DNA of 64,000 bases from an uncultured Candidatus Saccharibacteria bacterium. GTDB taxonomy: Bacteria; Patescibacteriota; Minisyncoccia; Phycocordibacterales; WO2-35-19. Every line of letters starts with the position of its first letter. The first letter of the stretch is position 1. The stretch spans positions 26,944 to 90,943 of the forward strand of contig CAZHPR010000001.1 in the NCBI GenBank assembly GCA_964534305.1, written 5' to 3'. The position numbers and the translations under genes were made by a program. Below the pieces are notes generated by a model, which made no database searches, was not told where the DNA came from, and saw only the letters and a list, made by a program, of their open reading frames with translations. This document shows positions 6,919 to 64,000 of the stretch, one piece after another.

Positions 6919-7986
6919 ATGAGTCAATATAAACTAAAAACAAATAAGCTGCCAAAAGGAGAAATTGAGATAGAGGGAGAGATAGACTCTTCCCTACTTC
7001 TTGAAGCACGAAAAAAAGCATTAAAAAAGATTGGCCAAGATGTTGAGGTTGACGGATTTCGCAAAGGAAATGTGCCAGAGAAAATAATCATAGATAAATT
7101 TGGAGAATCTTTCATCATGGAAGAGGCGGCTGAAATACTTCTTCAAGAACACTACCCTCTTATAGTTAAAGAGATGGACCTAGACACCATAGGTAGACCA
7201 AATATTTCTATAACAAAATTGGCCTTGGGCAATCCGCTCCAGTTCAAAATAAAAACAGCAACCCTACCAGAAATAAAACTCCCTGATTACAAAAAGATTG
7301 CGAAAGAAAAAAACTCAAAAAAAATTGAGATCCCGGAAGTTACCGAAAAGGAAATTGATGAGATACTACTACAGATAAGAAAAAATAAAGCTCATTTTGA
7401 CTGGCATAAATCAAATCCAAAAGAAGATGGCCACAACCATCCTGATTTTGAAAAAGAAGAAAATCTTCCAGTCTTAGATGACCAGCTTGCAAAAGAAGCG
7501 GGAAACTTTAAGGATCTTGCCGAGATGAAAGAAAAGATAAAAGAGAATATAAAAAAAGACAAAGAACTTAGGGAAGTAGAAAAAAGAAGGGGTGAAATAA
7601 TCGACGCCCTTGTAAAAGAAACTGATTTTGAGGTACCAGACATTTTGGTAGAGGCGGAAGTTTCAAAATATATGGCACAAATGCAAGACGATATAGAGAG
7701 AGCTGGGGGCAAGTTTAGCGAGTATCTATCACACATAAAGAAAACTGAAGATGATCTGAGGAAGGAGTGGCGAGAGCCGGCTGAAAATAAAGCAAAGGTA
7801 CAGCTTATATTCAACAAAATTGCCGAGACAGAAAAGTTGGAACCAAACAAAGAAATCCTAGAAAATGAAGTAAAACACTTGCTAGAACATTACCCAAATT
7901 CTAGCGAAGAAAACGCTCGTATCTACGTTTCTACTATTCTCCTCAACAGCGAAGTCCTCAAACTCCTAGAGAACCAAAAGGCTTAA
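6919..7986 (+). CDS. tig: Trigger factor with ribosome-binding N domain and C domain but no recognisable PPIase domain
   Basis: N-terminal GFRKGNVP signature and a tig-clpP neighbourhood. No FKBP-like segment is seen. Start is probably MSQYKL at 6919 rather than the ORF-track start at 6895. Confidence 0.75.
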   Translation: MSQYKLKTNKLPKGEIEIEGEIDSSLLLEARKKALKKIGQDVEVDGFRKGNVPEKIIIDKFGESFIMEEAAEILLQEHYPLIVKEMDLDTIGRPNISITKLALGNPLQFKIKTATLPEIKLPDYKKIAKEKNSKKIEIPEVTEKEIDEILLQIRKNKAHFDWHKSNPKEDGHNHPDFEKEENLPVLDDQLAKEAGNFKDLAEMKEKIKENIKKDKELREVEKRRGEIIDALVKETDFEVPDILVEAEVSKYMAQMQDDIERAGGKFSEYLSHIKKTEDDLRKEWREPAENKAKVQLIFNKIAETEKLEPNKEILENEVKHLLEHYPNSSEENARIYVSTILLNSEVLKLLENQKA

Positions 7987-8679
7987 GGCGGCGATGGCGG
8001 CGGTTTCGGCGCGCAAAACAAGAGAACCCAGAGAATACACTTGGGCTTCTTTTTGTTTAAATAGATCTAACTCCTTTGGAGACCAGCCACCTTCAGGCCC
8101 GATGAATAAGTTTACAGACTCCAGATTATAGTTTTCAGTTCCCCTCTTCTTTGCAAGGAGAGGGGTTAGGGGTGAGGTAGAAGAAGGCTCCAATATAATC
8201 ACCCCTCCTTCTGTTTCCTCAATACTATCTGCTAACTGCTTAATGCTATTTATCTCCGGTACATCAGCTCTGCCGCACTGCTCGCTTGCCTCTATCGCAA
8301 TCCTCTTTGCTCTTTCAAGGTTAAAACCTTTTTTCTCACTTCTTTCTGAAAGGATTGGAATTATTTTTGAGACCCCAAGTTCTGTCGCCTTTTCTATCAC
8401 CAGCTCAAGGTTATCTTTTTTTATCAAAGAAATATAAAGACTAATTTTATTTTTAGGGACCACTCCCCCTCTCTCTTCTAAGAGTCTCACCCAAGCTTCT
8501 CGATTGTTTATTGTTTCTATAACGTATAGGTATTCGCTCCCCCTACCGTCAAAGAGGACAACCTCGCTCCCAACATTGTATCTAAAGACACTTCTCCACT
8601 GGTGCATCAAATCTCTATCCTGCAACAGGGTCCTATCGCTACCTAAATCCTTTTTTATATAAAACCTATGTAGTCGCAT
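7966..8679 (-). CDS. rsmE: 16S rRNA (uracil1498-N3)-methyltransferase RsmE carrying a 15-aa in-frame repeat-element insertion
   Basis: RsmE family motifs (…LFIGPEGGWSPKE…, N-terminal PUA-like domain). The STSPLTPLLAKKRGT segment is encoded by the palindromic element at 8139-8183. Confidence 0.8.
   Translation of the reverse strand: MRLHRFYIKKDLGSDRTLLQDRDLMHQWRSVFRYNVGSEVVLFDGRGSEYLYVIETINNREAWVRLLEERGGVVPKNKISLYISLIKKDNLELVIEKATELGVSKIIPILSERSEKKGFNLERAKRIAIEASEQCGRADVPEINSIKQLADSIEETEGGVIILEPSSTSPLTPLLAKKRGTENYNLESVNLFIGPEGGWSPKELDLFKQKEAQVYSLGSLVLRAETAAIAALSLLVL
8139..8183. repeat. G+C-rich palindromic element (solo copy) inserted in frame within rsmE
   Basis: GTTCCCCTCTTCTTTGCAAGGAGAGGGGTTAGGGGTGAGGTAGAA. 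The same 45-bp unit is also at 11931-11975. Confidence 0.85.
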
Positions 8680-9543: not shown

Positions 9544-11073
9544 ATGTCATTAAAAATAGTAATACTTCTAGCTGGATTCTCGGCTCTGATCGGGATCGCT
9601 TTTGGGTATTTCCTTAGATGGATAATATCCTTAGGCCAGAGAGGTTCGGTTGAGCTTCGAATAAAGCAGATGGAACTCCATGCAAGAGAGGAGGCAAAGA
9701 AGATAGTTGAAGAGGCTGAGACAAAAGCAGAAGAAACCCAAAAAGAGATCCGGGCGGAAATAAAAGAAAAGGAAGATAAGTTCAAAAAGACTGAAGATAG
9801 GCTTATCAAGAAAGAAGAGTTTTTGGACAAGAGACAGGTAGATATAGATAAGGAAATAGAACAAATAAAAGAAAAGGTTGCTGAAGTAAAGGCAATCAGA
9901 GAAAAGGCAGAGCAAATAGAAAAACAAAAGTACGAAGAACTACAAAAGGTTGCAAATATGTCTGAGGAGGACGCCAAGAGAGAACTCTTAAATCTTGTAG
10001 AGAGAAGATCTGAAGAAGATTTTATGGTTAGGATGCAAAAATTAGAGCAACAAGGCACAGAGAAGATGGAAAAGAGGGCCAAAGAAATACTCACAACCTC
10101 TATACACAGACTAGCAAATGCTGTTTCCTCTGATGTGTTTTCTACCAGCGTAGAGATACCGTCAGATGAGATAAAGGGCAAAATAATCGGAAAAGAAGGT
10201 AGGAATATAAAAGCCTTTGAGAGAGCGAGCGGAGTTGAGGTTATTGTAGATGATACCCCAGGACTTATAACCATATCTTCTTATGACCCAGTAAGGAGGC
10301 AGGTTGCCAGAATGGCCCTCGAAAACCTTATCTCTGATGGAAGGATCCAACCTGCAAAGATAGAAGAGATGGTTGAAAAAGCAAAGCAGGATATAAACAA
10401 AATAATAAAAGAGAAGGGTGAACAAGCGGCATATGAATGTGGAGTTTTCAATTTAGACCCTAGAATCTTGGCGATTCTCGGCAGACTACACTTCCGTACT
10501 TCTTATGGCCAAAATGTGCTCCAACACTCAATTGAGATGTCGCACGTGGCAGGAATGATCGCTGAGGAGATCGGAGCTAATGTACCTATCGCAAAGGCAG
10601 GGGCCCTACTCCATGACATAGGCAAGGCAGTCGATCACGAAATCGCCGGCACTCACGTAGAGATCGGTAGAAGGATCTTGCAAAAATTTGGAGCGGATCC
10701 ACTCATCATAAAAGCAATGGAAGCTCATCACGGTGAATATCCTTATGAGACTCTGGAGTCTTATATTGTCCAAGCAGCCGATGCAATCTCTGGTGCAAGA
10801 CCGGGAGCAAGAAGAGACAGTGTAGAAAATTATTTGAAACGTCTCGGCGAGCTAGAAACAATTGCAACTTCCTTCAAGGGAGTAGACAAGGCTTATGCTC
10901 TACAGGCCGGCAGAGAAGTAAGAGTATTTGTAACCCCATCTGAAGTTACCGACCTCGAAGCAAGGAACATCGCTCGCGACATTGCAACAAGAATAGAAAA
11001 CGAACTCAAATACCCAGGAGAAATCAAAGTCCTCGTCATCCGCGAGTCTAGAAATATCGAATTTGCAAGATAG
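9544..11073 (+). CDS. rny: Ribonuclease Y
   Basis: N-terminal TM segment, coiled coil, KH domain (IGKEGRNIKAFE) and HD domain (LLHDIGKAVDHE). Confidence 0.9.
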   Translation: MSLKIVILLAGFSALIGIAFGYFLRWIISLGQRGSVELRIKQMELHAREEAKKIVEEAETKAEETQKEIRAEIKEKEDKFKKTEDRLIKKEEFLDKRQVDIDKEIEQIKEKVAEVKAIREKAEQIEKQKYEELQKVANMSEEDAKRELLNLVERRSEEDFMVRMQKLEQQGTEKMEKRAKEILTTSIHRLANAVSSDVFSTSVEIPSDEIKGKIIGKEGRNIKAFERASGVEVIVDDTPGLITISSYDPVRRQVARMALENLISDGRIQPAKIEEMVEKAKQDINKIIKEKGEQAAYECGVFNLDPRILAILGRLHFRTSYGQNVLQHSIEMSHVAGMIAEEIGANVPIAKAGALLHDIGKAVDHEIAGTHVEIGRRILQKFGADPLIIKAMEAHHGEYPYETLESYIVQAADAISGARPGARRDSVENYLKRLGELETIATSFKGVDKAYALQAGREVRVFVTPSEVTDLEARNIARDIATRIENELKYPGEIKVLVIRESRNIEFAR

Positions 11074-11739: not shown

Positions 11740-11779
11740 CCCTCCCCTGATCAAGGGGAGGGTTGGGTGGGGTTATTCC
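11740..11779. repeat. Palindromic element variant (solo copy) directly after the stop codon of the MBL ribonuclease gene
   Basis: CCCTCCCCTGATCAAGGGGAGGGTTGGGTGGGGTTATTCC. The hairpin loop resembles the 17609 element and the tail resembles the main family. Confidence 0.7.
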
Positions 11780-11788
11780 AAGATGGGG

Positions 11789-13237
11789 TTAATCCAAAAA
11801 GTATTCCTTACCGGGTTCGGGATAAATTGCTTCTATATCTAAGTACTCACGGATGCGTTGAGAGAGAAAGAGCGAAGAACGCGGTTCACCCATGATAGTA
11901 AAAACTTTTTTGAGAGAGTGTTGTTGTGTGGTTCCCCTCTCCTTTGCAAGGAGAGGGGTTAGGGGTGAGGTAGAACCTTCCGAAGCCTCCTCGACAAACT
12001 CCACCAAATTATCAGAATCTTTGTGTGAAGAGTAACCCTTTATTGTCTCTATCTTTGCTCTTACTTTTATTTTTTGACCATTTATCTTGACCTCACTCTT
12101 GCCGTCCTCAAGAGCCCGGCCCAAGCTACCCAGAGTTTGATACCCAACAAGGAGGAGGGTGTTTTTGTGATCGTCCAAAATATCAGCTTCATGAGCCAAA
12201 ACCCTCCCCCCTTCAGACATACCAGAGCCAGCAATTATTATCTTCGGGCCACCTTTTTTTATAACAGACTTACTTTCTTCAAAACCGTCTACAATATTGA
12301 GGCCAGGAAAATCAAATATGTTATCGCCCCTTTTTATCTCTTCTTGTACTTCCTTTTTAAAATCAGTTGCGTATTTTTTATAGATGTTTGTTACTTTTAT
12401 AGCCAGTGGAGAATCAAGATAGACAGGGACTTTCTCTATCTCCCCATCTTCTATCATGTTGTTTAGTTCGTACAGCATTACCTGAGTCCTTTCTATAGAA
12501 AAAGCTGGTATAACAATGGTTCCACCCCTCTTTATCCCCTCTTGGATCACCCCCTTAAACCTCTCTCTTCTTTCTTCTTTACTCTCATGATTTCTATCTC
12601 CATAAACACTCTCCATAACAATATAATTTGCTCCTTCTGGAATTTCTGTATCCGGTAATAATGGCGAAGGAGAATTGCCCAAATCTCCTGTAAAGGAAAT
12701 CTTGCGTACTTCATTCAAATCGAAAGATCCATAAGAAATATTTATTATGGCAGAACCGAGTATATGGCCAGCATTTTGCATATCTATCTTTATATCTTTA
12801 CCTAGGTTTATTGTTTGATTGTAATCGCAACCCTCCCACAAAGACATCGTTTTTTCTATATCCTTCTCTTCATAGAGATTTTTGTCGCGATGCCTAGACC
12901 TAAAAACTTTAAGAGCATCTAGGAGCATTGGCCTTGCAAGCTCCAGGGTTTCCTTTGTTGAAATTATTTTTCCACCAAAGCCCTCTCTCACAAGCTTTGG
13001 TATTTTGCCAATATGATCCATATGAGCATGAGTCACCAGTAGAAAATCAAAAGAAGACGGGTCGTATTTGAATGGCTCAAAGTTTTTTAGTTCATCATTG
13101 AAACTACCCTGGAGCAGACCACAATCAACCATAATCTTTGTACCAGCATAAAGAAATTCTATGTTTGCACCGGTTGCGGTCCCTACCCCACCCCAAAAAA
13201 TTAGTTTTGCATTTTTATCTTTATTTTGTTGACTCAT
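11789..13237 (-). CDS. MBL-fold beta-CASP ribonuclease (RNase J / CPSF-like) carrying a 15-aa in-frame repeat-element insertion
   Basis: HxHxDH motif (VTHAHMDHIG) and a beta-CASP-like central region. The C-terminal segment STSPLTPLLAKERGT is encoded by the element at 11931-11975. Confidence 0.7.
   Translation of the reverse strand: MSQQNKDKNAKLIFWGGVGTATGANIEFLYAGTKIMVDCGLLQGSFNDELKNFEPFKYDPSSFDFLLVTHAHMDHIGKIPKLVREGFGGKIISTKETLELARPMLLDALKVFRSRHRDKNLYEEKDIEKTMSLWEGCDYNQTINLGKDIKIDMQNAGHILGSAIINISYGSFDLNEVRKISFTGDLGNSPSPLLPDTEIPEGANYIVMESVYGDRNHESKEERRERFKGVIQEGIKRGGTIVIPAFSIERTQVMLYELNNMIEDGEIEKVPVYLDSPLAIKVTNIYKKYATDFKKEVQEEIKRGDNIFDFPGLNIVDGFEESKSVIKKGGPKIIIAGSGMSEGGRVLAHEADILDDHKNTLLLVGYQTLGSLGRALEDGKSEVKINGQKIKVRAKIETIKGYSSHKDSDNLVEFVEEASEGSTSPLTPLLAKERGTTQQHSLKKVFTIMGEPRSSLFLSQRIREYLDIEAIYPEPGKEYFLD
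11931..11975. repeat. G+C-rich palindromic element (solo copy) inserted in frame within the MBL ribonuclease gene
   Basis: GTTCCCCTCTCCTTTGCAAGGAGAGGGGTTAGGGGTGAGGTAGAA. Confidence 0.85.
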
Positions 13238-17150: not shown

Positions 17151-17199
17151 TGGGCTAAATATAGCATTATTATTTTATTTATAAACCCCCTCCGGCTTA

Positions 17200-17635
17200 A
17201 AGCCACCTCCCCCTTAATCAGGGGGAGGAAACACCCCACCCATCACAAATTATTTCTTATTTTTAAAATTACTTCCTCCACCCCATTATCAATCTCTTTA
17301 TTCCAAAACCTTAAAGTCTTATACCCCAAGTCTTCCATAAACAACTGTCTTACCCTGTCATACTCTTTATTTTGATTGTGAATTTCTCCGTCAATTTCGA
17401 TAACTAATTTTTTCTCTGGACAAAAGAAATCAACTACATAACCTCCAATACTATGCTGTCTCCTAAATTTCACCCCCAACTGACTACGTCTCAAATACCA
17501 CCAAATTTTATTCTCTTGCGGAGTTGGGTTTCTTCTAAGTTCCTTTCTATGCTCCCGGAGGCTGTATAGATTATGCAACTTCTTCATAACGATAAGTAGC
17601 AGTTTTTTCTTTCCCCTGATTAAGGGGAAAGTGGC
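17200..17635. mobile_element. Small cassette of one DUF559 endonuclease gene flanked by about 30-bp inverted repeats, inserted between adk and map
   Basis: Left arm AAGCCACCTCCCCCTTAATCAGGGGGAGGAAA (17200-17231). Right arm TTTCTTTCCCCTGATTAAGGGGAAAGTGGCC (17605-17635) is its imperfect reverse complement. Confidence 0.55.
17243..17587 (-). CDS. DUF559 (Vsr-like, PD-(D/E)xK) endonuclease-domain protein
   Basis: …ENKIWWYLRRSQLGVKFRRQHSIGGYVVDFFCPEKKLVIEIDG…LRFWN… The ORF-track start at 17638 reads through the right inverted repeat. The Met at 17587 is the more likely start. Confidence 0.8.
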   Translation of the reverse strand: MKKLHNLYSLREHRKELRRNPTPQENKIWWYLRRSQLGVKFRRQHSIGGYVVDFFCPEKKLVIEIDGEIHNQNKEYDRVRQLFMEDLGYKTLRFWNKEIDNGVEEVILKIRNNL

Positions 17636-17652
17636 CAAAGGCCGATAGGGGT

Positions 17653-18243
17653 TTACAGGTTTATTTTTTCTAATATCTCCCTATGCACATCTTCTATTGG
17701 TTGTTCACCATTTATTTCTACAAATTTGTAGTAAGGATTTGATTTAAAATGTTCTAGCGCAGGCTTTACACTCTTTTCGTACCATTCCATTCTTCTTTTT
17801 ATCTCTTCTGATTTATCATCCACCCTCCCCCTCTCCTCAAGCCTTTCAGTTGCCCATTCTGGGGAAACAAGAATTGAGATTATAGTAGGATTCTCTCTCT
17901 TATAAAACTGGAGCGCCGTATCCAAGATCCAAGCCTCATGCACCTTCCTTGATATACCATCTATTACCAAATGCTCACTCCCCGTCATATTATCAACAAA
18001 GAATTGTGACCAAAGCCATATCGGAAGAAATTCTGGCATAAGCCCGCCCGAATCAATAACCTCCTTGGTTTTCTTTGCAGAAAAAGAATCCTGTTTTGCA
18101 AATTCTCGTAGTTTGCCTCCAGTTTCTAGGTACAAAACTTTCTTTTCTGGATCAACTTGCTCTAACTTTTCTATAAGCAATTTTGCCTGTGTACCCTTAC
18201 CAGAACCAGAAGGACCAAAAAATATAAATGTTTGAGGATTCAT
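17653..18243 (-). CDS. adk: Adenylate kinase
   Basis: P-loop GPSGSGKGTQ. Confidence 0.9.
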   Translation of the reverse strand: MNPQTFIFFGPSGSGKGTQAKLLIEKLEQVDPEKKVLYLETGGKLREFAKQDSFSAKKTKEVIDSGGLMPEFLPIWLWSQFFVDNMTGSEHLVIDGISRKVHEAWILDTALQFYKRENPTIISILVSPEWATERLEERGRVDDKSEEIKRRMEWYEKSVKPALEHFKSNPYYKFVEINGEQPIEDVHREILEKINL

Positions 18244-22753: not shown

Positions 22754-22843
22754 GGAGACGTGGCTGAGCTGGTCGAAAGCGCCTCACTGCTAACGAGGTA
22801 GGCCCTTTAAAAGGTCTCGAGGGTTCGAATCCCTCCGTCTCCG
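22754..22843 (+). tRNA. tRNA-Ser (anticodon GCU), class II with a long variable arm
   Basis: Manual fold: acceptor GGAGACG/CGTCTCC, anticodon loop CTGCTAA, long variable arm, T-loop GGTTCGAATCC. No encoded CCA. Confidence 0.8.
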
Positions 22844-29755: not shown

Positions 29756-29830
29756 ACCGCCCTTAGCTCAGTTGGTTAGAGCACAGAGCTTATACCTCTG
29801 GGGTCCTAGGTTCGAATCCTAGAGGGCGGA
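29756..29830 (+). tRNA. tRNA with anticodon UAU (tRNA-Ile2-type, AUA-reading)
   Basis: Manual fold: acceptor CCGCCCT/AGGGCGG, D-arm GCTC…GAGC, anticodon stem CAGAG/CTCTG with loop CTTATAC, T-arm CTAGG-TTCGAAT-CCTAG. No encoded CCA. Confidence 0.7.
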
Positions 29831-32955: not shown

Positions 32956-33373
32956 GGGGATGATCGGCCTAGACAATAAGAATATCTTTATAAATGCCAA
33001 AGAGAGCTGTGGTGACTCTTAAATCCGCCATAAATGATAACTGCAAACAAGGTTGTCACAAAAGCTAAGTCCGTTGCTTCTCCATACTTTGGGGTCAACG
33101 ATTTCGCTTTCGCTTACGTTAGAGCTTAATTAAGTTTCTTTCCTAAGCGACGCTATCCTTCTTATGTCTCATACGGAAGATCATGGTGTAATAAATTGAG
33201 GCTCTGGAAAATAGTTCTCCCCTATTTTCCGAAATGTTGGGAGATCGAAACTTTAGAATTTCGTCTGTTTGTATCTAGAGTTTTTAAATGGGCCTAGCCC
33301 AAAAAGCAGTCTATCTCTGGTAGAAATTTATAAAATACCTTATTGCATGCGCGTTCGATTCGCGCCATCTCCA
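32956..33373 (+). ncRNA. ssrA: tmRNA (SsrA)
   Basis: 5' GGGGAUGAUCGG… pairs with 3' …CAUCUCC-A. tRNA-like T-arm GCGCGTTCGATTCGCGC. Lies immediately downstream of smpB. Candidate tag frame ends in …FAFAYVRA-TAA. Confidence 0.7.
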
Positions 33374-33446
33374 CAAAATTAACGAGCGAACAAGGTGAGC
33401 GACTATAATTTTGTAGGACCCTGAGTTTATCGAAGGGTTTTTAATT

Positions 33447-43090: not shown

Positions 43091-43140
43091 CCTCCCCTCT
43101 CCTCTTGCAAGGAGAGGGGTTGGGGGTGAGGTAGATTATT
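43091..43140. repeat. Palindromic element (solo copy) abutting or overlapping the fusA stop codon
   Basis: CCTCCCCTCTCCTCTTGCAAGGAGAGGGGTTGGGGGTGAGGTAGATTATT. Confidence 0.8.
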
Positions 43141-45904: not shown

Positions 45905-45950
45905 TTCCTCCCCTCTCTTAGATTAAGAGAGGGTTAGGGTGAGTTATTTT
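45905..45950. repeat. Palindromic element (solo copy) filling the rpsL-rpsG intergenic spacer
   Basis: CCTCCCCTCTCTTAGATTAAGAGAGGGTTAGGGTGAGTTATTTTTA. Confidence 0.8.
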
Positions 45951-47383: not shown

Positions 47384-47428
47384 CCCCCTCTCTTAATTTA
47401 AGAGAGGGGTTAGGGGTGAGTTATTTTT
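47384..47428. repeat. Palindromic element (solo copy) that encodes the last 5 codons and the stop codon of the ComEC MBL-domain gene
   Basis: CCCCCTCTCTTAATTTAAGAGAGGGGTTAGGGGTGAGTTATTTTT. Confidence 0.85.
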
Positions 47429-48300
47429 AGATTTACCCCATCACTCTTGAAAATAATGCTACCAGAAGTATCAGTGCGGAGAGTTTTTATATTTAATTTC
47501 TCCAAGAGGGCTAGTACTTCTTGATGCGGATGACCGTAGCGATTGTCCTTACCACTAGAGACAACTGCATACTCCGGATTTACCGCTCTTACAAAATTAT
47601 CAGAACTAGAAGTTCTTGAGCCGTGATGTCCAAGTTTTAATACATCACTTTCTAGTCCCAAGGAGAGTCCTTGGGATCTATATTTGTTTACCAAATAATT
47701 TTCTATTGCACTCGGCGAATCTCCGGTAAGCAAAAATTCATTCTCGCCATAAACAAGACGAGCAACGATTGAGGCAGTATTTGTCTCCCACCCACTTACA
47801 TCTTTTTCTGGAAACAAGATTTCCAAAAATGCTCCCCCACCCAAATTGATTTGCATGCCAGCTCTTGCAAGAATCTTTTTTATTTTTCCTCCACTTTCTA
47901 ACTTGCCAACTTGCGTCTTTAAACTTTCATATATATCTGTATCCGACTCTACCCCGGGTTCCAAAAAAAGATCTACCTCATAATTCTCTAAAATATCAAC
48001 GAGTCCCCCCACATGATCCGCATCTGGATGAGTTGCAACAACAACATCAAGAGACCGATCATAAAACTTCATCACCTTAGAAATTTCTCGAAGTACCCCC
48101 CTCCCCACCCCACCATCAACAAGAACTTGGTTGCCTGAGGGAGACTCTATAAAAATGGCATCCCCTTGCCCAACGTCCAAAAAGGCAACCGTGAGCAGTC
48201 CTCTATTATTTCTGAGATCCAAAAAAACAAAGAGAGAAATTAGGATAGCGAGAATAAACAGGATGCTCACTAAGAGTCTAATTTTTAATTTTGAACTCAT
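47410..48300 (-). CDS. Stand-alone ComEC-type metallo-beta-lactamase domain protein
   Basis: N-terminal TM anchor followed by …VAFLDVGQGDAIFIE… and …ATHPDADHVGG… (the MBL part of ComEC). Confidence 0.7.
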   Translation of the reverse strand: MSSKLKIRLLVSILFILAILISLFVFLDLRNNRGLLTVAFLDVGQGDAIFIESPSGNQVLVDGGVGRGVLREISKVMKFYDRSLDVVVATHPDADHVGGLVDILENYEVDLFLEPGVESDTDIYESLKTQVGKLESGGKIKKILARAGMQINLGGGAFLEILFPEKDVSGWETNTASIVARLVYGENEFLLTGDSPSAIENYLVNKYRSQGLSLGLESDVLKLGHHGSRTSSSDNFVRAVNPEYAVVSSGKDNRYGHPHQEVLALLEKLNIKTLRTDTSGSIIFKSDGVNLKITHP

Positions 48301-54983: not shown

Positions 54984-55063
54984 ACTTTATATTTTAGCAG
55001 ATTAATAACTCACCCCCTATCCCCCTCTCTTACAACAAGAGAGGGGGGACCAAAAAATACAAT

Positions 55064-55624
55064 CTATTTCTGATTAAAATACTCTGGAATCTCATTTGCT
55101 TTAATAATAATCCTGTTTGGGAACATATTTCGTAGCTCATCCACCAAGGGATAAAATTTTGTGTTAACCACTAAAGATCCTACATTAATTTTAAACAAAC
55201 CTGTTTCGTCTGGTCTTTGTGGTTTTCCACCTGGAAATGGGTTGTCTTTTTCTAAAACAACTAAAAAATTACACTGGGTCATAAATCCTCCAAACATACC
55301 GCCTAATTTTCCAACGTCTCCTTTTATTCCACCATTTGAAAGAATGTTCAGAGCTGCTGTTACCCATTCAAGGTCTCTACCCCTAGTAATTCCGTGTGCC
55401 AAATAATTATTTAAAACTTCTGTTGGTATATCTCTCAGATAATAGTCAATGGCATTTTGATACCTTTCGGTTGCAAAAGGAGGATTCCATCCGTTTACAT
55501 CTTGATTAGCTTGAGCTGTTATTTCGGCATCGTATTTTTCAAGTAGCTCCTGAGCCACTTTCTCAGATTCCCCAAAAGGGACGAATTCTTGTTTTGGTTG
55601 TGGGTTTTGTGGTTGATTTTCCAT
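55064..55624 (-). CDS. Hypothetical protein (cargo gene of the cassette)
   Basis: ORF only. Gly-rich central segment. No family assignment. Confidence 0.4.
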   Translation of the reverse strand: MENQPQNPQPKQEFVPFGESEKVAQELLEKYDAEITAQANQDVNGWNPPFATERYQNAIDYYLRDIPTEVLNNYLAHGITRGRDLEWVTAALNILSNGGIKGDVGKLGGMFGGFMTQCNFLVVLEKDNPFPGGKPQRPDETGLFKINVGSLVVNTKFYPLVDELRNMFPNRIIIKANEIPEYFNQK

Positions 55625-55647
55625 ATTATCCAGGCCGCTAATTATTC

Positions 55648-55998
55648 TTATAATTTTAATTCTGTACTTCTTCTGATATTTTCTAAAACTTTATCCAAGT
55701 TGTTTAAAATATCATTATTCCAAAATCTTATAGTTCTTATATCTTTATCTTTTAAAAAGTCCTCGCGTTCTTGGTCGTATTCTACAGCACTTTTATGTTG
55801 TTCACCATCTAGTTCTATCGCAAGTCTTTTTTCTGCACAAAAGAAATCTAGTATATACGGGCCTGCACTATATTGTCTTAAAAATTTTAAATTGTTTACT
55901 TGTCTGTTCCTAATTTTTGACCAAAGGAGTCTTTCTGCTTCAGTTTGATTTGACCTGAGTTCACGTCGTCGCTCTAGTTGGTTTTGGTCGTTATACAT
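55648..55998 (-). CDS. DUF559 (Vsr-like) endonuclease-domain protein
   Basis: …EAERLLWSKIRNRQVNNLKFLRQYSAGPYILDFFCAEKRLAIELDGEQH…IRFWNN… Start set at the ATG at 55998; the ORF-track TTG start reads into the repeat. Confidence 0.85.
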   Translation of the reverse strand: MYNDQNQLERRRELRSNQTEAERLLWSKIRNRQVNNLKFLRQYSAGPYILDFFCAEKRLAIELDGEQHKSAVEYDQEREDFLKDKDIRTIRFWNNDILNNLDKVLENIRRSTELKL

Positions 55999-56171
55999 AT
56001 TTGTATGATTCCGGTTTCCCCCTTGTTGTAAGGGGTGAGAATGCGCAGTATTCGCAAGACTTTTTGAGATATTTTTATGCAATTAAAATATCCAAAAAGT
56101 GTACAGTCCTTGTAAGGGATTAGGGGGGTTATTCCCCCTATCTTGTTGTAAGAGAGGGGTTAGGGGGTGAG

Positions 56172-56939
56172 TTATTTTACATCCACACTTTTCAAAATTT
56201 CTGGAAACTCTTCTTTTTTTAGTGAAGCATGACCAACAAGAAATCCTTCTACATTACCGTAGTCTATTATGGCTCTAGCATTCGGGGCCTCAACAGCAGC
56301 TCCATAGAGGATACGCACAGAAGAAGCAATATCTTTACCAAACAATTCACCCAAAGATTTTCTGATAAAAAGGACTGTCTCGTGTATATCAGTTGGACTC
56401 ATTGCTTCTCTATAAGATTTTCCTATCGTCCAGACCGGCTCATAGGCGATAATAAGTCCCAACATATATTTCTTTTGTAAGCCGGAGATAGAATTTTTAA
56501 GTTGTTCTTTTAAGAACTCGAGATGACTTCCTTCTCTATCTCTAACACTTTCCCCGATACACAGGATTGGAGTAAGACCAGCTTCAAACACTGACTCTAA
56601 TTTTTTGTTTATTATTTTATTATCCTCACCCATTGCCCTCCTCTCAGAGTGCCCGACCAAAACAAACCTAACTCCCAAATCTTTGAGCATTTGATTGCTC
56701 ACTTCCCCAGTAAAGGCGCCCTTTTCTTCAAAATACGAGTTTTGTGCTGTAATAAATAGATTTTTAGGTCTGCTTATTTTTGACAACAGCCCAAGATACA
56801 CAAAAGGAGGAGCGACCAAAACCTCTGTATTTTTGAGTACTGAGGCGGTCTTTTTTGTAAAATTAAATATACTTTTTGCTTCTTCAAGAGAACTCGGGTT
56901 CATCTTCCAATTTGCTATAACTATATTTTTCTTTTTCAT
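56172..56939 (-). CDS. tpiA: Triosephosphate isomerase
   Basis: …IANWKMN… and …VGHSERR… motifs. Its stop codon lies inside the right inverted repeat. Confidence 0.9.
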   Translation of the reverse strand: MKKKNIVIANWKMNPSSLEEAKSIFNFTKKTASVLKNTEVLVAPPFVYLGLLSKISRPKNLFITAQNSYFEEKGAFTGEVSNQMLKDLGVRFVLVGHSERRAMGEDNKIINKKLESVFEAGLTPILCIGESVRDREGSHLEFLKEQLKNSISGLQKKYMLGLIIAYEPVWTIGKSYREAMSPTDIHETVLFIRKSLGELFGKDIASSVRILYGAAVEAPNARAIIDYGNVEGFLVGHASLKKEEFPEILKSVDVK

Positions 56940-62117: not shown

Positions 62118-62235
62118 AAATAGAAAATTAATTTTCTATTTAATTATATCAGTATAAAAAAATTTTTTTATAGAATATGTAAATAACTCACCCCCTGCCC
62201 CCTCTCTTACAACAAGAGAGGGGGTAAGAAAAAAA

Positions 62236-62610
62236 TTACTCAGGTCTGCAATATATCTCTAATCTAATATCACTCGGATCATCAAACCAGATAAATTCTT
62301 TATCACCATACTTATCAATTTTGATTCCGCTGTTTTTTATACCTACTTTATTTAAAACTCTCTCGAGTTCTCTTAATTCCTCTCCTGTTTTTACTCCAAA
62401 AGCCAAATGGTTCAAACTGGTTTTGTCTTTATCTGATTTTTCGTATTCTCCATAAGGCAGACCAAAAAATATTTTGGTTTCTCCAATTTTGTAAGCAACC
62501 TGATTTTTATCTTGATAGTCTGGTTTACCAAGAAAAGAAGAATAGAATTTTTCTGTCTTCTCAATGTTCTTAACTATCAAAACTATGTGGTCTATATATT
62601 TAGGGTGCAT
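62236..62610 (-). CDS. VOC-family (glyoxalase/bleomycin-resistance/dioxygenase) protein
   Basis: …IDHIVLIVKNIEKTEKFY… N-terminal beta-alpha-beta-beta-beta module. Confidence 0.7.
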   Translation of the reverse strand: MHPKYIDHIVLIVKNIEKTEKFYSSFLGKPDYQDKNQVAYKIGETKIFFGLPYGEYEKSDKDKTSLNHLAFGVKTGEELRELERVLNKVGIKNSGIKIDKYGDKEFIWFDDPSDIRLEIYCRPE

Positions 62611-62614
62611 ATTT

Positions 62615-62968
62615 TTATAGTTTATTTTTTAAAGAATTTTCTATTATAACTTTCAAAACTCCTTCAATATCTTTTACTACTTCATTATTCCAAAATCTTA
62701 TAGTTCTTATATCTTTATCTTTTAAAAAGTCCTCGCGTTCTTGGTCGTATTCTACAGCACTTTTATGTTGTTCACCATCTAGTTCTATCGCAAGTCTTTT
62801 TTCTGCACAAAAGAAATCTAGTATATACGGGCCTGCACTATATTGTCTTAAAAATTTTAAATTGTTTACTTGTCTGTTCCTAATTTTTGACCAAAGGAGT
62901 CTTTCTGCTTCAGTTTGATTTGACCTGAGTTCACGTCGTCGCTCTAGTTGGTTTTGGTCGTTATACAT
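62615..62968 (-). CDS. DUF559 (Vsr-like) endonuclease-domain protein, second near-identical copy
   Basis: Identical to the 55648 copy except for the C-terminal 20-25 residues. Confidence 0.85.
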   Translation of the reverse strand: MYNDQNQLERRRELRSNQTEAERLLWSKIRNRQVNNLKFLRQYSAGPYILDFFCAEKRLAIELDGEQHKSAVEYDQEREDFLKDKDIRTIRFWNNEVVKDIEGVLKVIIENSLKNKL

Positions 62969-63141
62969 ATTTGTATGATTCCGGTTTCCCCCTTGTTGTA
63001 AGGGGTGAGAATGCGCAGTATTCGCAAGACTTTTTGAGATATTTTTATGCAATTAAAATATCCAAAAAGTGTACAGTCCTTGTAAGGGATTAGGGGGGTT
63101 ATTCCCCCTATCTTGTTGTAAGAGAGGGGTTAGGGGGTGAG

Positions 63142-64000
63142 TTATTCCGAAACCACCCTGAGCACTTCCTCAATTGTTGTCAATCCTTGAGCAGCCTTGA
63201 AGATACCATCTTCCATCATGGTGAGCATCCCCTCTTTTTTTGCTTGCAGTTCTATATCTTCAGTTGTTCCGCCTTTGATAATTATATCCTTGATCGCACT
63301 TGAAACGTTGAGCACCTCATAGATACCAACTCTACCCTTAAAACCCTCCTCACCCACATCTTTGTTTGGTTTGTAAAAAGGTACGTTTTTCCATTCGTCT
63401 TTATTTCCTATTATTTTCTCTTCTTTCAAAGCCTTGAGTACTCTGTCCATATCAATAACCTTTGCAATGGAATCAACCTCGGCTTGAGTAAGGTAGTGTT
63501 TCTCACCTCGATCTACCAACTTTCTTACCAATCTCTGACCGATAACAACATCAAGAGTTGAGATCATGAGAAATGGCTCTACCTTCATATCTATAAGTCT
63601 AGGCACAGCACCAGCCGCTGAGTTGGTGTGTAAAGTAGAGAGAACCAGGTGTCCAGTAAGAGAAGCGTTGATAGCAAGAGAGGCGGTCTCATTGTCTCTA
63701 ATCTCTCCAACCATTATGATATCCGGGTCCTGTCTCACAAGAGTACGGAGTCCGGCTGCAAAGGTAAGACCTATTTCAGGCTTAACCTGAGTCTGATTAA
63801 CTCTTTTCATCTGGTATTCAATCGGATCTTCAATAGTAGAAATATTTACGTCTGGAACATTTAAGATATCAAGCATTGTATAGAGGGTGGTGGACTTTCC
63901 GCTTCCAGTAGGACCAGTTGTAAGTACCATACCGGTTGTGTGCTGCAAAGCCTTGTGCAAAACATCAAGACCTTCTCCATGAAAACCAAGGGCTTCTAGA
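63142..64000 (-). CDS. pilB: Type IV pilus assembly ATPase PilB/GspE, C-terminal ATPase domain; the gene continues beyond the window end
   Basis: Walker A GPTGSGKSTT, Asp box, Walker B and His box of GspE-family ATPases. Its stop codon lies inside the right inverted repeat of the cassette. Confidence 0.8.
   Translation of the reverse strand, partial: LEALGFHGEGLDVLHKALQHTTGMVLTTGPTGSGKSTTLYTMLDILNVPDVNISTIEDPIEYQMKRVNQTQVKPEIGLTFAAGLRTLVRQDPDIIMVGEIRDNETASLAINASLTGHLVLSTLHTNSAAGAVPRLIDMKVEPFLMISTLDVVIGQRLVRKLVDRGEKHYLTQAEVDSIAKVIDMDRVLKALKEEKIIGNKDEWKNVPFYKPNKDVGEEGFKGRVGIYEVLNVSSAIKDIIIKGGTTEDIELQAKKEGMLTMMEDGIFKAAQGLTTIEEVLRVVSE

Follow-up and report, generated by a model that had tools for sequence, protein, structure and literature searches.

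A 45-nt repeat in frame in two patescibacterial housekeeping genes belongs to the BoxC/PIT/TM family, whose motifs also flank DUF559 nuclease genes

Introduction

How does nearly the same stretch of 45 nucleotides come to be read in frame within two unrelated conserved genes? Such a unit was noted in a gene for a beta-CASP metallo-beta-lactamase (MBL) nuclease within a stretch of 64 kb, which is referred to as the window. The first-pass annotation suggested that only in-frame, tolerated insertions survive or, alternatively, that the element has a preferred coding phase or the peptide has a function.

The unit is no new kind of element; it belongs to the described BoxC/PIT/TM family of repeats. 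The name BoxC goes back to Bachellier et al. and PIT to the Maher laboratory (2000), both as cited by Holder et al. 2015 (NAR 43:10126, PMC4666352). The latter paper gives a consensus and 23 Escherichia coli sequences, for example CCCTCTCCCTTGAGGGAGAGGGTTAGGGTGAGGGT, and reports CD and NMR evidence of a single-strand triplex, DMS footprinting in vivo in which no triplex was detected, and an absence of mobility genes around the E. coli copies, the motif being 'always located intergenically' in this species. The origin of these repeats has been unexplained since the 1990s. The 45-nt unit is very probably a solo repeat of BoxC/PIT/TM type translated in a permissive loop, and the motif pairs that bound DUF559 genes hint at how such repeats spread.

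The in-frame copies and their host genes

The search for the 45-mer with up to two mismatches gave two matches in the window, 8137–8181 and 11930–11974, and none in 100 shuffles. The maximal unit common to both copies (11931–11975 and 8138–8182) is identical at 44 of 45 positions with a single C/T change, which bears out the annotated near-identical unit in a second gene, in the same frame and orientation (Table 1). Codons 11974..11930 of the beta-CASP gene, offset by one base from the unit, and codons 8181..8137 of rsmE, both on the minus strand, encode peptides that are identical at 14 of 15 residues (E to K), because the C/T difference is non-synonymous. The hosts are indeed unrelated and both copies are in frame, but the annotated identity of the 15-aa peptide holds only to this extent. 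The insert, including EGSTSPLTPLLAKERGTTQQ, is presumably translated, as the frame is intact. The peptide STSPLTPLLAKERG was compared at the loops of the host genes in orthologues.

Table 1. Coordinates of the motifs, host genes and DUF559 cassettes in the window
Feature	Position	Strand	Details
Host gene 2: RsmE, 16S rRNA m3U1498 methyltransferase, 237 aa	7966..8679	-	insert loop immediately before GPEGG motif
Second in-frame copy, in rsmE	8137..8182	-	STSPLTPLLAKKRGT; core 8141–8179, one G.T wobble in stem
Solo motif	11740..11774	+	CCCTCCCCTG atc AAGGGGAGGG tt GGGTGGGGTT; intergenic, 15 nt 3' of beta-CASP stop codon
Host gene 1: beta-CASP metallo-beta-lactamase nuclease, 482 aa	11789..13237	-	Pfam Lactamase_B, Beta-Casp, RMMBL
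45-nt repeat unit in frame in the beta-CASP MBL nuclease gene	11930..11975	-	codons STSPLTPLLAKERGT
Triplex-motif core, G-rich strand	11934..11972	+	Y arm CCCCTCTCCTT, loop tgc, R arm AAGGAGAGGGG, linker tta, third segment GGGGTGAGGTA
DUF559 cassette 3	17184..17653	-	motif 17184–17228(-), DUF559 gene 17243..17638(-), motif 17609–17653(+)
Solo motif near fusA (EF-G)	43094..43133	+	2 nt from fusA stop codon (43136–43138)
Solo motif, GGG/GGG variant	45911..45945	+	between rpsL (S12) and next gene
Solo motif over 3' end of MBL-fold gene 47410..48300	47385..47422	+	overlaps gene end
DUF559 cassette 1	55007..56173	-	motif 55007–55048(-), ORF 55064..55624, DUF559 gene 55648..56082, motif 56135–56173(+)
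DUF559 cassette 2	62185..63143	-	motif 62185–62224(-), glyoxalase-like ORF 62236..62610, DUF559 gene 62615..63052, motif 63105–63143(+)

The closest solved structure for the beta-CASP nuclease is the RNase TTHA0252 of T. thermophilus. The insert corresponds to residues 422–436, between the helix 408–423 and the strand 444–448, and the alignment to PDB 2dkf stops at residue 416. In the AF2 model pLDDT falls to 54–63 at the insert only and is about 90 in the flanks; on this prediction, the insert occupies a surface loop that is permissive and has little order.

Both inserts are located in loops that are hypervariable among orthologues, short in many relatives and occupied by other variants of the triplex motif in others. 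Among 120 beta-CASP orthologues, 54 have a loop of 4–12 aa at this place and others contain different repeat variants, so that comparison with orthologues confirms the unit as an insertion of a dispersed repeat. In Paceibacterial orthologues the motif is found at both loops nearly always in one orientation, a bias unexpected under a purely random insertion-plus-filter model. The RsmE of a distant lineage (L104, 31% identity) also has the motif in this loop, reversed in orientation. DUF559 is absent from the beta-CASP and RsmE loops in all orthologues of either host gene. Neither host gene is covered by the near-identical contig L279, which therefore provides no allele lacking the 45-nt inserts.

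The proposal that only in-frame, tolerated insertions survive is therefore retained in part. That the observed copies are in frame and tolerated in permissive loops is supported, but since three of the six frames of the unit are fully open, identity of frame in two genes is weak evidence by itself. An unsystematic look for split genes in the 64 kb and related loci showed no disrupted gene carrying the motif.

Anatomy of the motif

The anatomy of the motif was derived here from covariation, independently of Holder 2015. The core at 11934–11972 forms 11 of 11 Watson–Crick pairs and 11 of 11 triads. In the purine-motif triad code (G.G-C, A.A-T, T.A-T), its third segment mirrors the purine arm; consequently, single-stranded DNA can fold into a hairpin with the tail in the major groove. 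Triplex formation would be expected from the triad code taken together with the data of Holder et al. on related sequences, and such folding may, to judge by the sequence, also take place in vivo. The calculated free energy of the hairpin is -12.2 kcal/mol as DNA and -20.4 kcal/mol as RNA in a folding model that represents hairpins only; no shuffle matches these values.

The length of the G-run covaries between the purine arm and the tail (GGG/GGG, GGGG/GGGG, GGGGG/GGGGG), and where the arms are asymmetric, the tail is mirrored rather than directly repeated, for example, GGGGAGGG to GGGTGGGG and AAAGAAGGGG to GGGGAAGATT. The code was tested on 370 unique Y/R hairpins that lack the search pattern, with a triad-code threshold of at least 90%. 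The third segment fits the code in 70 hairpins, compared with 0 for the 5'-side control, 20 for the direct-repeat code, and a mean of 18 and a maximum of 28 for permuted tails. Six beta-CASP orthologues examined at the DNA level contain at the loop either no motif or lineage-specific motifs, each of which obeys the code.

Other readings of the tail were rejected. The asymmetric arms speak against Watson–Crick pairing of the tail, as an alternative partner, with the pyrimidine arm, and against a tail that directly repeats the purine arm (20 hairpins fit the direct code, 70 the mirror code). Shine–Dalgarno/anti-SD mimicry, a telomere-like TTAGGG and a G-quadruplex were dropped because mirror covariation accounts for the tail; the NMR data of Holder et al. 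also argue against a quadruplex.

Since the arms are homopurine and homopyrimidine, stop codons are impossible within them on either strand. The unit comprises 15 codons and so yields a linker peptide of Pro/Ser/Thr/Leu and Lys/Glu/Arg/Gly, which is a by-product and no selected module.

Distribution of the motif

Three-block motifs were found 12 times in the window and never in 10 shuffles; two are inside ORFs, one overlaps a stop codon and nine are intergenic. The solo motif at 11740..11774 is of the same variant as the in-frame insert of one beta-CASP orthologue (P0004). The last codons and the TAA stop of the MBL-fold gene 47410..48300 are supplied by the motif tail and linker; accordingly, ribosomes appear to read into the motif.

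In the metagenome and viral collections, the matches of the 19-mer core are at least as many as those listed, and the motif core is present in at least six phyla. Intragenic motifs across phyla are read in at least three C-strand frames as well as in G-strand frames, and in both orientations. There is thus no universal coding phase, and the preferred phase suggested by the first-pass annotation is not supported. All intragenic copies found have a length that is a multiple of three and are stop-free in the host frame. The repeat matches no Rfam family at the gathering threshold, where tmRNA and two tRNAs were the only matches. A literature search with the literal strings GGAGAGGGGTT and GGGGTGAGGT returned only unrelated eukaryotic papers.

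DUF559 cassettes

Inverted pairs of motifs with tails pointing outward surround DUF559 genes in three of three cases in the window; the flanked genes match the Pfam families PF04480 (DUF559) and PF18741. Cassette 1 is located between pgk and tpiA; its DUF559 gene has a probable ATG at 55998, and its ORF 55064..55624 has no match in Pfam. Cassette 3, both motifs of which have a 12-nt mini-hairpin in loop 2 and whose DUF559 gene encodes 131 aa, splits adk and map, genes that overlap (ATGA) in relatives. For cassette 2, one allele pair provides filled/empty evidence, the only one for the cassettes: contig L279, 97–98% identical, is devoid of exactly 62190–63142 (953 bp), a segment bounded by the motif tails. 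The L279 junction has 5–6 nt of microhomology (GAGTT), so that insertion is indistinguishable from deletion.

The association extends beyond the window. DUF559 homologues picked by protein alone are motif-flanked in four of four cases, and 17 of 18 DUF559 domains in 1.18 Mb of sequence have a motif within 400 bp. In E. coli, TMECO no. 9 is located 168 bp downstream of ycjD in the expected orientation. In other phyla, DUF559 is fused in frame to LeuRS, UvrB, MetH and GlgB through two triplex motifs, which are presumably translated. The frame is continuous through both flanking motifs in fusions of the UvrB/LeuRS/GlgB type, and Pfam detected in the fusion ORFs host domains and DUF559/MTES_1575 only, with no intein or intron domain. 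DUF559 scores of the UvrB, LeuRS and GlgB ORFs and the three window genes range from E 1e-27 to 1e-37. Free-standing DUF559 genes carry the label 'leucyl-tRNA synthetase' in one source.

Most motifs are solo: among the matches listed, DUF559 was found nearby at 2 of 120 viral loci and about 12 of 143 genome and metagenome loci. The link to the nuclease may therefore hold for a subset only; alternatively, landing may be favoured at the motif, which would then be no part of the element. No consistent signal of target-site duplication was detected at the cassettes, L153 or the L279 junction; the dinucleotides flanking the three window cassettes are AT/AT, AT/AT and TA/TA, and those in L153 are unmatched. 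Terminal inverted repeats, which together with a target-site duplication would frame the short non-coding body of a MITE (miniature inverted-repeat transposable element), are a property of the inverted motif pairs and cassettes, whereas the solo 45-nt unit has none of its own.

Origin of the insertions

One candidate explanation, to which we give slightly less than an even chance, assigns the BoxC/PIT/TM repeats to a selfish DUF559 (Vsr-like) element that is widespread, has these repeats as its structured terminal inverted repeats and can insert in essential genes without an intron or intein. The motif would be the terminal structure of this DUF559-driven element, whose ends, stop-free in most frames, could be translated as flexible linkers; an in-frame insertion in a loop would then consist either of the nuclease domain or of a solo end, the 45-nt unit being an example. 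On this view, solo copies would be remnants or non-autonomous derivatives of the element that the nuclease has either moved in trans or abandoned. They may have spread by repair of nuclease-induced breaks or through single-stranded DNA intermediates, and the nuclease possibly recognises the folded single-stranded triplex or a conserved purine–purine mismatch in the stem. The role of DUF559 as the mobilising agent is suggested by its association with the motif pairs.

A different history, one ancient insertion per loop inherited vertically and converted to the current variants of each genome (concerted evolution), is rather doubtful. All motif-bearing Paceibacterial beta-CASP orthologues examined have the same orientation with C-strand reading; L144 and L146 have homologous flanks (AGAAGGAAAAAAAGGATTGAAGAGG) and motifs that differ by coordinated changes in all three segments; and the window copies agree at 44 of 45 positions despite unrelated host genes, all of which speaks for this history. 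It does not fit the interleaving, by similarity, of the 54 short-loop orthologues with insert-bearing ones, the varying distance from conserved codon to motif (6–15 nt on the left, 21–30 nt on the right) or the reversed motif in the distant RsmE. Moreover, the kind of insert in RsmE does not follow the similarity of the host proteins: P0125 (70% identity) has approximately the insert of the window, whereas P0122–P0124 (77–80%) have other inserts. Selection of the encoded peptide as a linker, binding or localisation module recruited to several proteins, with the DNA repeat secondary, is very improbable. The peptide does recur in two proteins, and those loops contain comparable P-rich/KERG peptides in relatives, but loop peptides vary widely (STSPPTPLLAKERG, NTPPNPPLGQGREG, NNAPQPPLILRGG) while the DNA retains hairpin and triad complementarity. 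What is conserved and covaries is thus the DNA triplex code and not the peptide, this DNA is also frequent between genes, elsewhere it is translated in further frames and orientations, and the insert region is predicted with low confidence; the peptide function considered by the first-pass annotation is accordingly disfavoured.

The GC-rich 'byp' elements of Magnusiomyces mitochondria are bypassed by the ribosome, and a similar bypass, or removal from RNA as in an intron-like element, would leave the insert untranslated. The GC-rich hairpin, stable as RNA (-20 kcal/mol) within an AT-rich gene, would suit this reading, which is nevertheless scarcely credible, as removal requires neither the multiple-of-three length nor the stop-free host frame of all intragenic copies, and one copy gives the stop codon of 47410..48300. 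It is also improbable, if less so, that the motif is a host signal (a terminator, an mRNA stabiliser, or a replication or recombination signal) beside which DUF559 merely lands. The motif has no U-tract after the hairpin and occurs in both orientations relative to transcription, and PIT elements were without promoter or terminator activity according to Holder et al. (citing their ref 41); on these grounds an intrinsic terminator was rejected. A location inside enzyme loops would be unexpected for a host signal, and tails-out inverted pairs at DUF559 genes and a cassette-sized indel are typical of element ends, even though the 3' end of a gene is no more than a few nt away from most window copies, several of which overlap the stop codon, and copies in other genomes are mostly solo.

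If the reading of the unit as an in-frame BoxC/PIT/TM repeat linked to DUF559 holds, a repeat family regarded as intergenic for 30 years would live inside essential genes of streamlined Patescibacteria, a second, independent case of the Rickettsia palindromic element phenomenon, and its tolerance would have a simple sequence reason, the stop-free arms. DUF559 (YcjD in E. coli) would be the first candidate mobilising gene for BoxC/PIT elements, and the conservation and patchy distribution of the motifs would become bench-testable in E. coli. The inserts would also lengthen loops, give spurious similarity of unrelated proteins and already have contaminated annotation, as in the free-standing DUF559 genes labelled 'leucyl-tRNA synthetase'.

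Comparison with known systems

Similar to Vsr-like homing endonucleases (Dassa et al. 2009, PMC2677866; the VSR/DUF559 family, PDB 3r3p, in PMC3424549), the cassettes contain small Vsr-fold genes that invade conserved housekeeping sites and are also free-standing, with hairpins adjoining the ORF. A Vsr-fold ORF in or beside conserved genes is characteristic of the cassettes, not of the 45-nt unit itself. Homing endonucleases are found in group I introns, split inteins and fractured genes, whereas DUF559 here is fused in frame, and the Pfam matches and continuous frame of the fusions show no intron or intein that would restore the host product.

REP/REPIN-RAYT systems (e.g. PMC3116915) share GC-rich hairpins, mostly extragenic, that occur as singlets and inverted doublets in lineage-specific variants, and a nuclease gene of single-copy type that is itself repeat-flanked. 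In contrast, the flanked gene here encodes a DUF559/Vsr-like PD-(D/E)XK nuclease and not an IS200/IS605-type HUH tyrosine transposase, the motif has a mirror third strand, and copies are present inside genes. No RAYT gene was found among the proteins scanned, which included part of the window ORFs. A REP with 5' GTAG was rejected: the ...GAGGTAGA variant alone has GTAG, on its 3' side, and GTTAT is present instead in other copies.

The Rickettsia palindromic elements (RPE; Ogata et al. 2000, as summarised in PMC10969869) are repeats of about 100–150 bp in Rickettsia and relatives. According to that summary, they too are dispersed palindromic repeats in frame in unrelated functional genes that encode a peptide segment at fold-compatible positions, but are described without a triplex third segment or nuclease gene. 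The 45-nt unit of Patescibacteria works like an RPE and is not one, being set apart by size, architecture and host as described there.

With BoxC/PIT/TM repeats the unit shares a C-rich arm, a short loop, a G-rich arm, a TTA second loop ('type A' of Holder) and a second G-rich triad arm, the core words GAGAGGG, TTAGGG and GTGAGG, and many dispersed copies, often in inverted pairs, with a patchy multi-phylum distribution. It has the three blocks of class II, with a stem within 6–15 nt and at most one mismatch (full pairing and triads at 11934–11972, one G.T wobble at 8141–8179), and short loops, tgc and tta, within the range of 3–6 nt for the first and about 3 nt for the second; the frequency of the motifs in the window agrees with a dispersed multicopy repeat. 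The strict TMECO consensus, CCCTCNCCC N3-6 GGGNGAGGG N3 GGGNGAGGG, searched as a regular expression, has 0 matches in the window and 0 in the 45-mer: TMECO arms are CCCTCNCCC, and those found here are CCCCTCTCC(TT); the unit varies in sequence within the broader G/C-rich class and is no TMECO proper. The differences from the described repeats are the two in-frame copies in housekeeping genes, the stop codon supplied to one gene and the pairs around DUF559; in-frame copies in housekeeping genes and inverted motif pairs flanking DUF559 genes are new relative to the searchable literature.

Two in-frame copies of the 45-nt unit

The 45-nt unit has two matches in the window (8137-8181 and 11930-11974, with at most two mismatches; none in 100 shuffles), and the largest unit common to both copies, 11931-11975 against 8138-8182, is identical at 44 of 45 positions. 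One copy lies in the gene of a 482-aa protein with the domains Lactamase_B, Beta-Casp and RMMBL, the other in rsmE. The two copies have one orientation and, as the first-pass annotation states, one reading frame; its single C/T difference was also found, but not its identical 15-aa peptide, since the C/T change turns E to K. Three of the six frames of the unit are open throughout, and the shared frame in two genes is therefore weakly informative.

Coordinates and composition of the features
Feature	Position or locus	Strand	Sequence or content
In-frame copy 1	codons 11974..11930	-	STSPLTPLLAKERGT; within ORF 11789..13237 (beta-CASP)
In-frame copy 2	codons 8181..8137	-	STSPLTPLLAKKRGT; within ORF 7966..8679 (RsmE methyltransferase)
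Pyrimidine arm of 45-nt unit		+	CCCCTCTCCTT
First loop of 45-nt unit	between pyrimidine and purine arms	+	tgc
Purine arm of 45-nt unit		+	AAGGAGAGGGG; complementary to pyrimidine arm
Linker of 45-nt unit		+	tta
Third segment of 45-nt unit		+	GGGGTGAGGTA
Motifs with mini-hairpin nested in second loop	17184-17228, 17609-17653; also L153, L154, L158		
DUF559 cassettes	17184-17653, 55007-56173, 62185-63143		
In-frame DUF559 composites	L018		UvrB
	L006, L021, L029		LeuRS
	L126		GlgB
	L037, L011		MetH
tmRNA	32956-33376		
tRNAs	22754-22843, 29757-29830		

Triplex motif architecture and its copies in the window

The unit belongs, as a solo copy with intact arms, to a family of triplex motifs. As DNA its hairpin is predicted at -12.2 kcal/mol, as RNA at -20.4, values equalled by no shuffle, and the third segment mirrors the purine arm: each G faces a G, and each A faces an A or a T. 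This mirror relation is the purine-motif triad code, which was derived here from motif variants, independently of the description by Holder et al. Among the window motifs, G-run lengths of arm and tail covary (3/3, 4/4, 5/5), and a distal GG to AA change in the arm is accompanied by GG to TT in the tail; asymmetric arms in related genomes are mirrored, not repeated (GGGGAGGG/GGGTGGGG, AAAGAAGGGG/GGGGAAGATT, GGGAGAGGGAGGGG/GGGGAGGGTGAGGG). Of 370 unique pyrimidine/purine hairpins that lack the search pattern, 70 are followed directly 3' by a code-compliant third segment (at least 90% match), as against none for the mirrored 5' flank, 20 for a direct-repeat code, and a mean of 18 and maximum of 28 in 500 permutations of the tails.

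The linker of solo copies is 2-4 nt, in contrast to the nested mini-hairpin near DUF559 genes; such mini-hairpins, 12-19 nt long (e.g., tGGCCaaaGGCC), are often nested in the second loop of DUF559-adjacent motifs in Patescibacteria. Stem position 6 repeatedly has a purine-purine mismatch: CCCCTATCTT/AAGAGAGGGG in window motifs 56135-56173 and 63105-63143; the 'mm' types of E. coli, including the copy adjacent to ycjD, have the mismatch CCCTCGCCCC/GGGGAGAGGG at this position. Because Vsr-type nucleases recognise mismatches, a role in nuclease recognition might be imagined, as pure speculation.

A three-block finder detected 12 triplex motifs in the 64-kb window (none in 10 shuffles), of which two are the in-frame copies; the census of the source genome covers these 64 kb and about 9 kb of a near-identical strain. 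Motif 47385-47422 provides the final codons and TAA stop of the MBL-fold gene 47410..48300, whose terminus ...KITHP* comes from the motif tail with the TTA linker read as TAA (47410-47430). The terminal GTTA of the tail overlaps the stop codons of tpiA (56172-56174), T2SSE (63142-63144) and adk (17653-17655), the fusA stop codon lies 2 nt past its adjacent motif, and motif 11740-11774 lies 15 nt past the beta-CASP stop codon. The G-rich strand is + in all six solo window copies, and local genes are on the - strand. GC skew is negative nearly throughout positions 1-64000, and almost all genes there are on the - strand.

Insertion into loops of the host proteins

In the beta-CASP protein, the unit is a frame-preserving insertion in a disordered loop. 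The AlphaFold model (mean pLDDT 89, pTM 0.90) falls to pLDDT 54-63 only at residues 421-440, a stretch flanked by helix 408-423 and strand 444-448; T. thermophilus RNase TTHA0252, the best-matching solved structure, can be aligned as far as residue 416, just ahead of the insert. Comparison with orthologues lacking the insert, which the first-pass annotation had proposed, points to a permissive loop: among 120 orthologues from Paceibacterota, Zambryskibacteria and other Patescibacteria, the loop that joins the helix ending in EFVE to the strand KVFVIMGE measures 4-39 aa and is at most 12 aa in 54 (e.g., EKVAP-KKVF). Peptides at this loop in other orthologues include STSPPTPLLAKERGE, NNSPLTPLLLQERGT, NTPPNPPLGQGREG, NNAPQPPLILRGG and NNPPNPPYIKGG. 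Of six orthologues compared as DNA, five carry a lineage-specific motif, each true to both pairing codes, and the sixth (L151) has no triplex motif at the loop.

The RsmE loop preceding GPEGG behaves in the same way in the orthologue alignment; on L104, an unrelated low-GC contig, an RsmE of 31% identity has a motif in this loop in the opposite orientation, which reads PLSFGEGLGVR. The distance from motif to conserved codon shifts by several codons among beta-CASP orthologues, and in RsmE orthologues the insert type does not track host-protein similarity; on these grounds, we read the alignments as suggesting turnover within a tolerant loop rather than one fixed site. Further recurrent peptides in the two loops (SEDGERSRTM, TSPGLRLDLSSTEERQGKQT, ESLELKAKSLE, LHNSYFINHNS) resemble translated copies of other repeat families, and thus the loops appear to gather several kinds of repeat. 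The beta-CASP orthologue P0008 (L150, 10001-11455) contains in-frame triplex motifs at three positions, near codons 157, 377 and 423, with more motifs right after its stop codon.

Distribution and reading frames

The 25-mer core was found in 23 species representatives, belonging to Ignavibacteria, Bacteroidota, Chloroflexota, Cyanobacteria and four Patescibacteria groups, while the 19-mer core is common in metagenome and IMG/VR viral collections (at least 120 viral loci, L159-L278). Its presence in viral contigs may point to a route of spread between phyla, or to host DNA in proviruses.

Frames were surveyed on low-GC loci, which are unlikely to contain long spurious ORFs. Pfam-confirmed genes with an internal motif encode UvrB, GlgB, RsmE and GH106 rhamnosidase; LeuRS also has one, identified from the ORF reading, as Pfam matched only the DUF559 insert in the submitted fragment. 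The intragenic readings differ (TSPLTPLL.KERG, YLTPNPSP.ERG, PHPQPLS.GEG, PLSFGEGLGVR, SPLL.RGVGGEV), which means that several frames and both orientations are in use; the preferred coding phase offered as an alternative by the first-pass annotation is not supported by these loci as a universal rule. All-purine and all-pyrimidine codons are never stops, so that only the loops can close a frame, and a frame shut by a TTA linker becomes open with TTG.

DUF559 cassettes and fusions

DUF559 cassettes in the source genome have members of the same motif family as their inverted ends. All three window DUF559 genes have an inverted motif pair with third segments outward, and two of the cassettes contain a second ORF, one of 186 aa without assigned function and one glyoxalase-like, of 124 aa. 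An HMM search over 1.18 Mb, that is, all DNA collected for this analysis, found a strict motif within 400 bp of 17 of 18 DUF559 domains, usually in the order motif (C-strand sense), DUF559, motif (G-strand sense), with third segments outermost; the motifs of the 18th, window gene 17243..17638, have a 12-nt nested loop-2 hairpin and surface once longer linkers are allowed. Four DUF559 homologues picked by protein similarity alone have an upstream motif in all cases and a downstream motif in three. In E. coli K-12 (NC_000913; L152), the DUF559 gene ycjD (1351407-1351760, -) has TMECO no. 9 (1351204-1351239, -), one of Holder's triplex motifs, 168 bp downstream in the expected cassette orientation. 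Upstream, ycjD has a different palindrome, 45 nt long. The literature search revealed no paper connecting DUF559 or YcjD with BoxC/PIT.

At least one cassette is an indel between near-identical strains. Contig L279, which comes from a different sample and shares 97-98% identity with the window, has a T2SSE-T2SSF spacer of 71 bp (at 9545), versus 953 bp in the window (62190-63142). The insert consists of motif, DUF559, glyoxalase-like ORF and motif, and its boundaries are the motif tails; the L279 junction shows GAGTT microhomology and, against window 62190-63142, no clear target duplication. Over its first 324 nt, the inserted copy matches the DUF559 copy next to tpiA in L279 with 100% identity. 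In three relatives adk overlaps map (ATGA); in the window a 470-bp cassette and a 33-nt spacer lie between the two genes.

Long ORFs with two inverted motifs in other phyla proved to be housekeeping genes whose two motifs enclose a DUF559 domain (PF04480, Vsr-like) in frame. Pfam confirmed DUF559 in L006, L018, L021 and L126 as well as the UvrB and GlgB host domains; LeuRS and MetH were identified, and DUF559 recognised in L011, L029 and L037, by translation reading and HMM search. Such essential enzymes, with translated motifs on both sides of DUF559, occur in Bacteroidota, Saccharibacteria and unassigned contigs; no intein or intron domain was detected in them, and the three LeuRS genes have two different insertion sites. 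Free-standing DUF559 proteins of 116-129 aa (P0250, P0254, P0263, P0269, P0285, P0355) are named 'leucyl-tRNA synthetase' by one source, a label presumably transferred from LeuRS genes with the in-frame insert.

Possible mechanism and alternatives

A homing function is established or predicted for Vsr-like nucleases (PMC2677866, PMC3424549). The motif would fold into a hairpin-triplex as single-stranded DNA during replication or repair, and the DUF559 nuclease would make or process breaks, spreading cassettes and solo ends. A solo end could reach a loop by trans-mobilisation, by gene conversion between copies or as a cassette remnant, and its translation would then yield a passenger linker. 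The window cassettes, the compared loci and the L279 junction show no consistent target duplication. The nuclease link may hold for only part of the family, since most motifs elsewhere are solo: DUF559 occurs in two of 120 viral loci among the matches listed, each about 130 bp from the motif.

An ancient insert maintained in step by concerted evolution is a serious sub-hypothesis; the near-identity of the two copies speaks for it, the shifting motif positions among orthologues against it. Selection of the encoded peptide is poorly supported: the two hosts share the peptide save for one residue, which would favour it, but the motif is read in other frames and orientations in other genes. Bypass or splicing of the insert is also poorly supported. 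A host signal independent of DUF559 is likewise poorly supported: the motifs at several stop codons would favour it, but promoter or terminator activity is reported absent in the E. coli repeats (PMC4666352), and inverted motif pairs bracket DUF559 genes with their third segments outward.

Comparison with BoxC/PIT/TM repeats

BoxC repeats of E. coli were renamed PIT elements by the Maher laboratory and later TM/TMECO (PMC4666352). The TM consensus is CCCTCNCCC N3-6 GGGNGAGGG N3 GGGNGAGGG, with TTA as the second loop of type A (Holder et al. 2015, PMC4666352). A single strand forms a triplex by CD and NMR, and DMS in vivo detected no TM triplex (PMC4666352). The motif is linked to local instability and was counted at 3610 copies across 262 proteobacterial genomes, and cyanobacteria are rich in G/C-rich triplex motifs; in E. 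coli it is 'always located intergenically', with neither transposase nor integrase nearby (PMC4666352). The 45-nt unit shares the architecture of these repeats but lies outside the strict TMECO consensus and, judged by sequence, is best described as a variant of the known BoxC/PIT/TM kind in a new setting.
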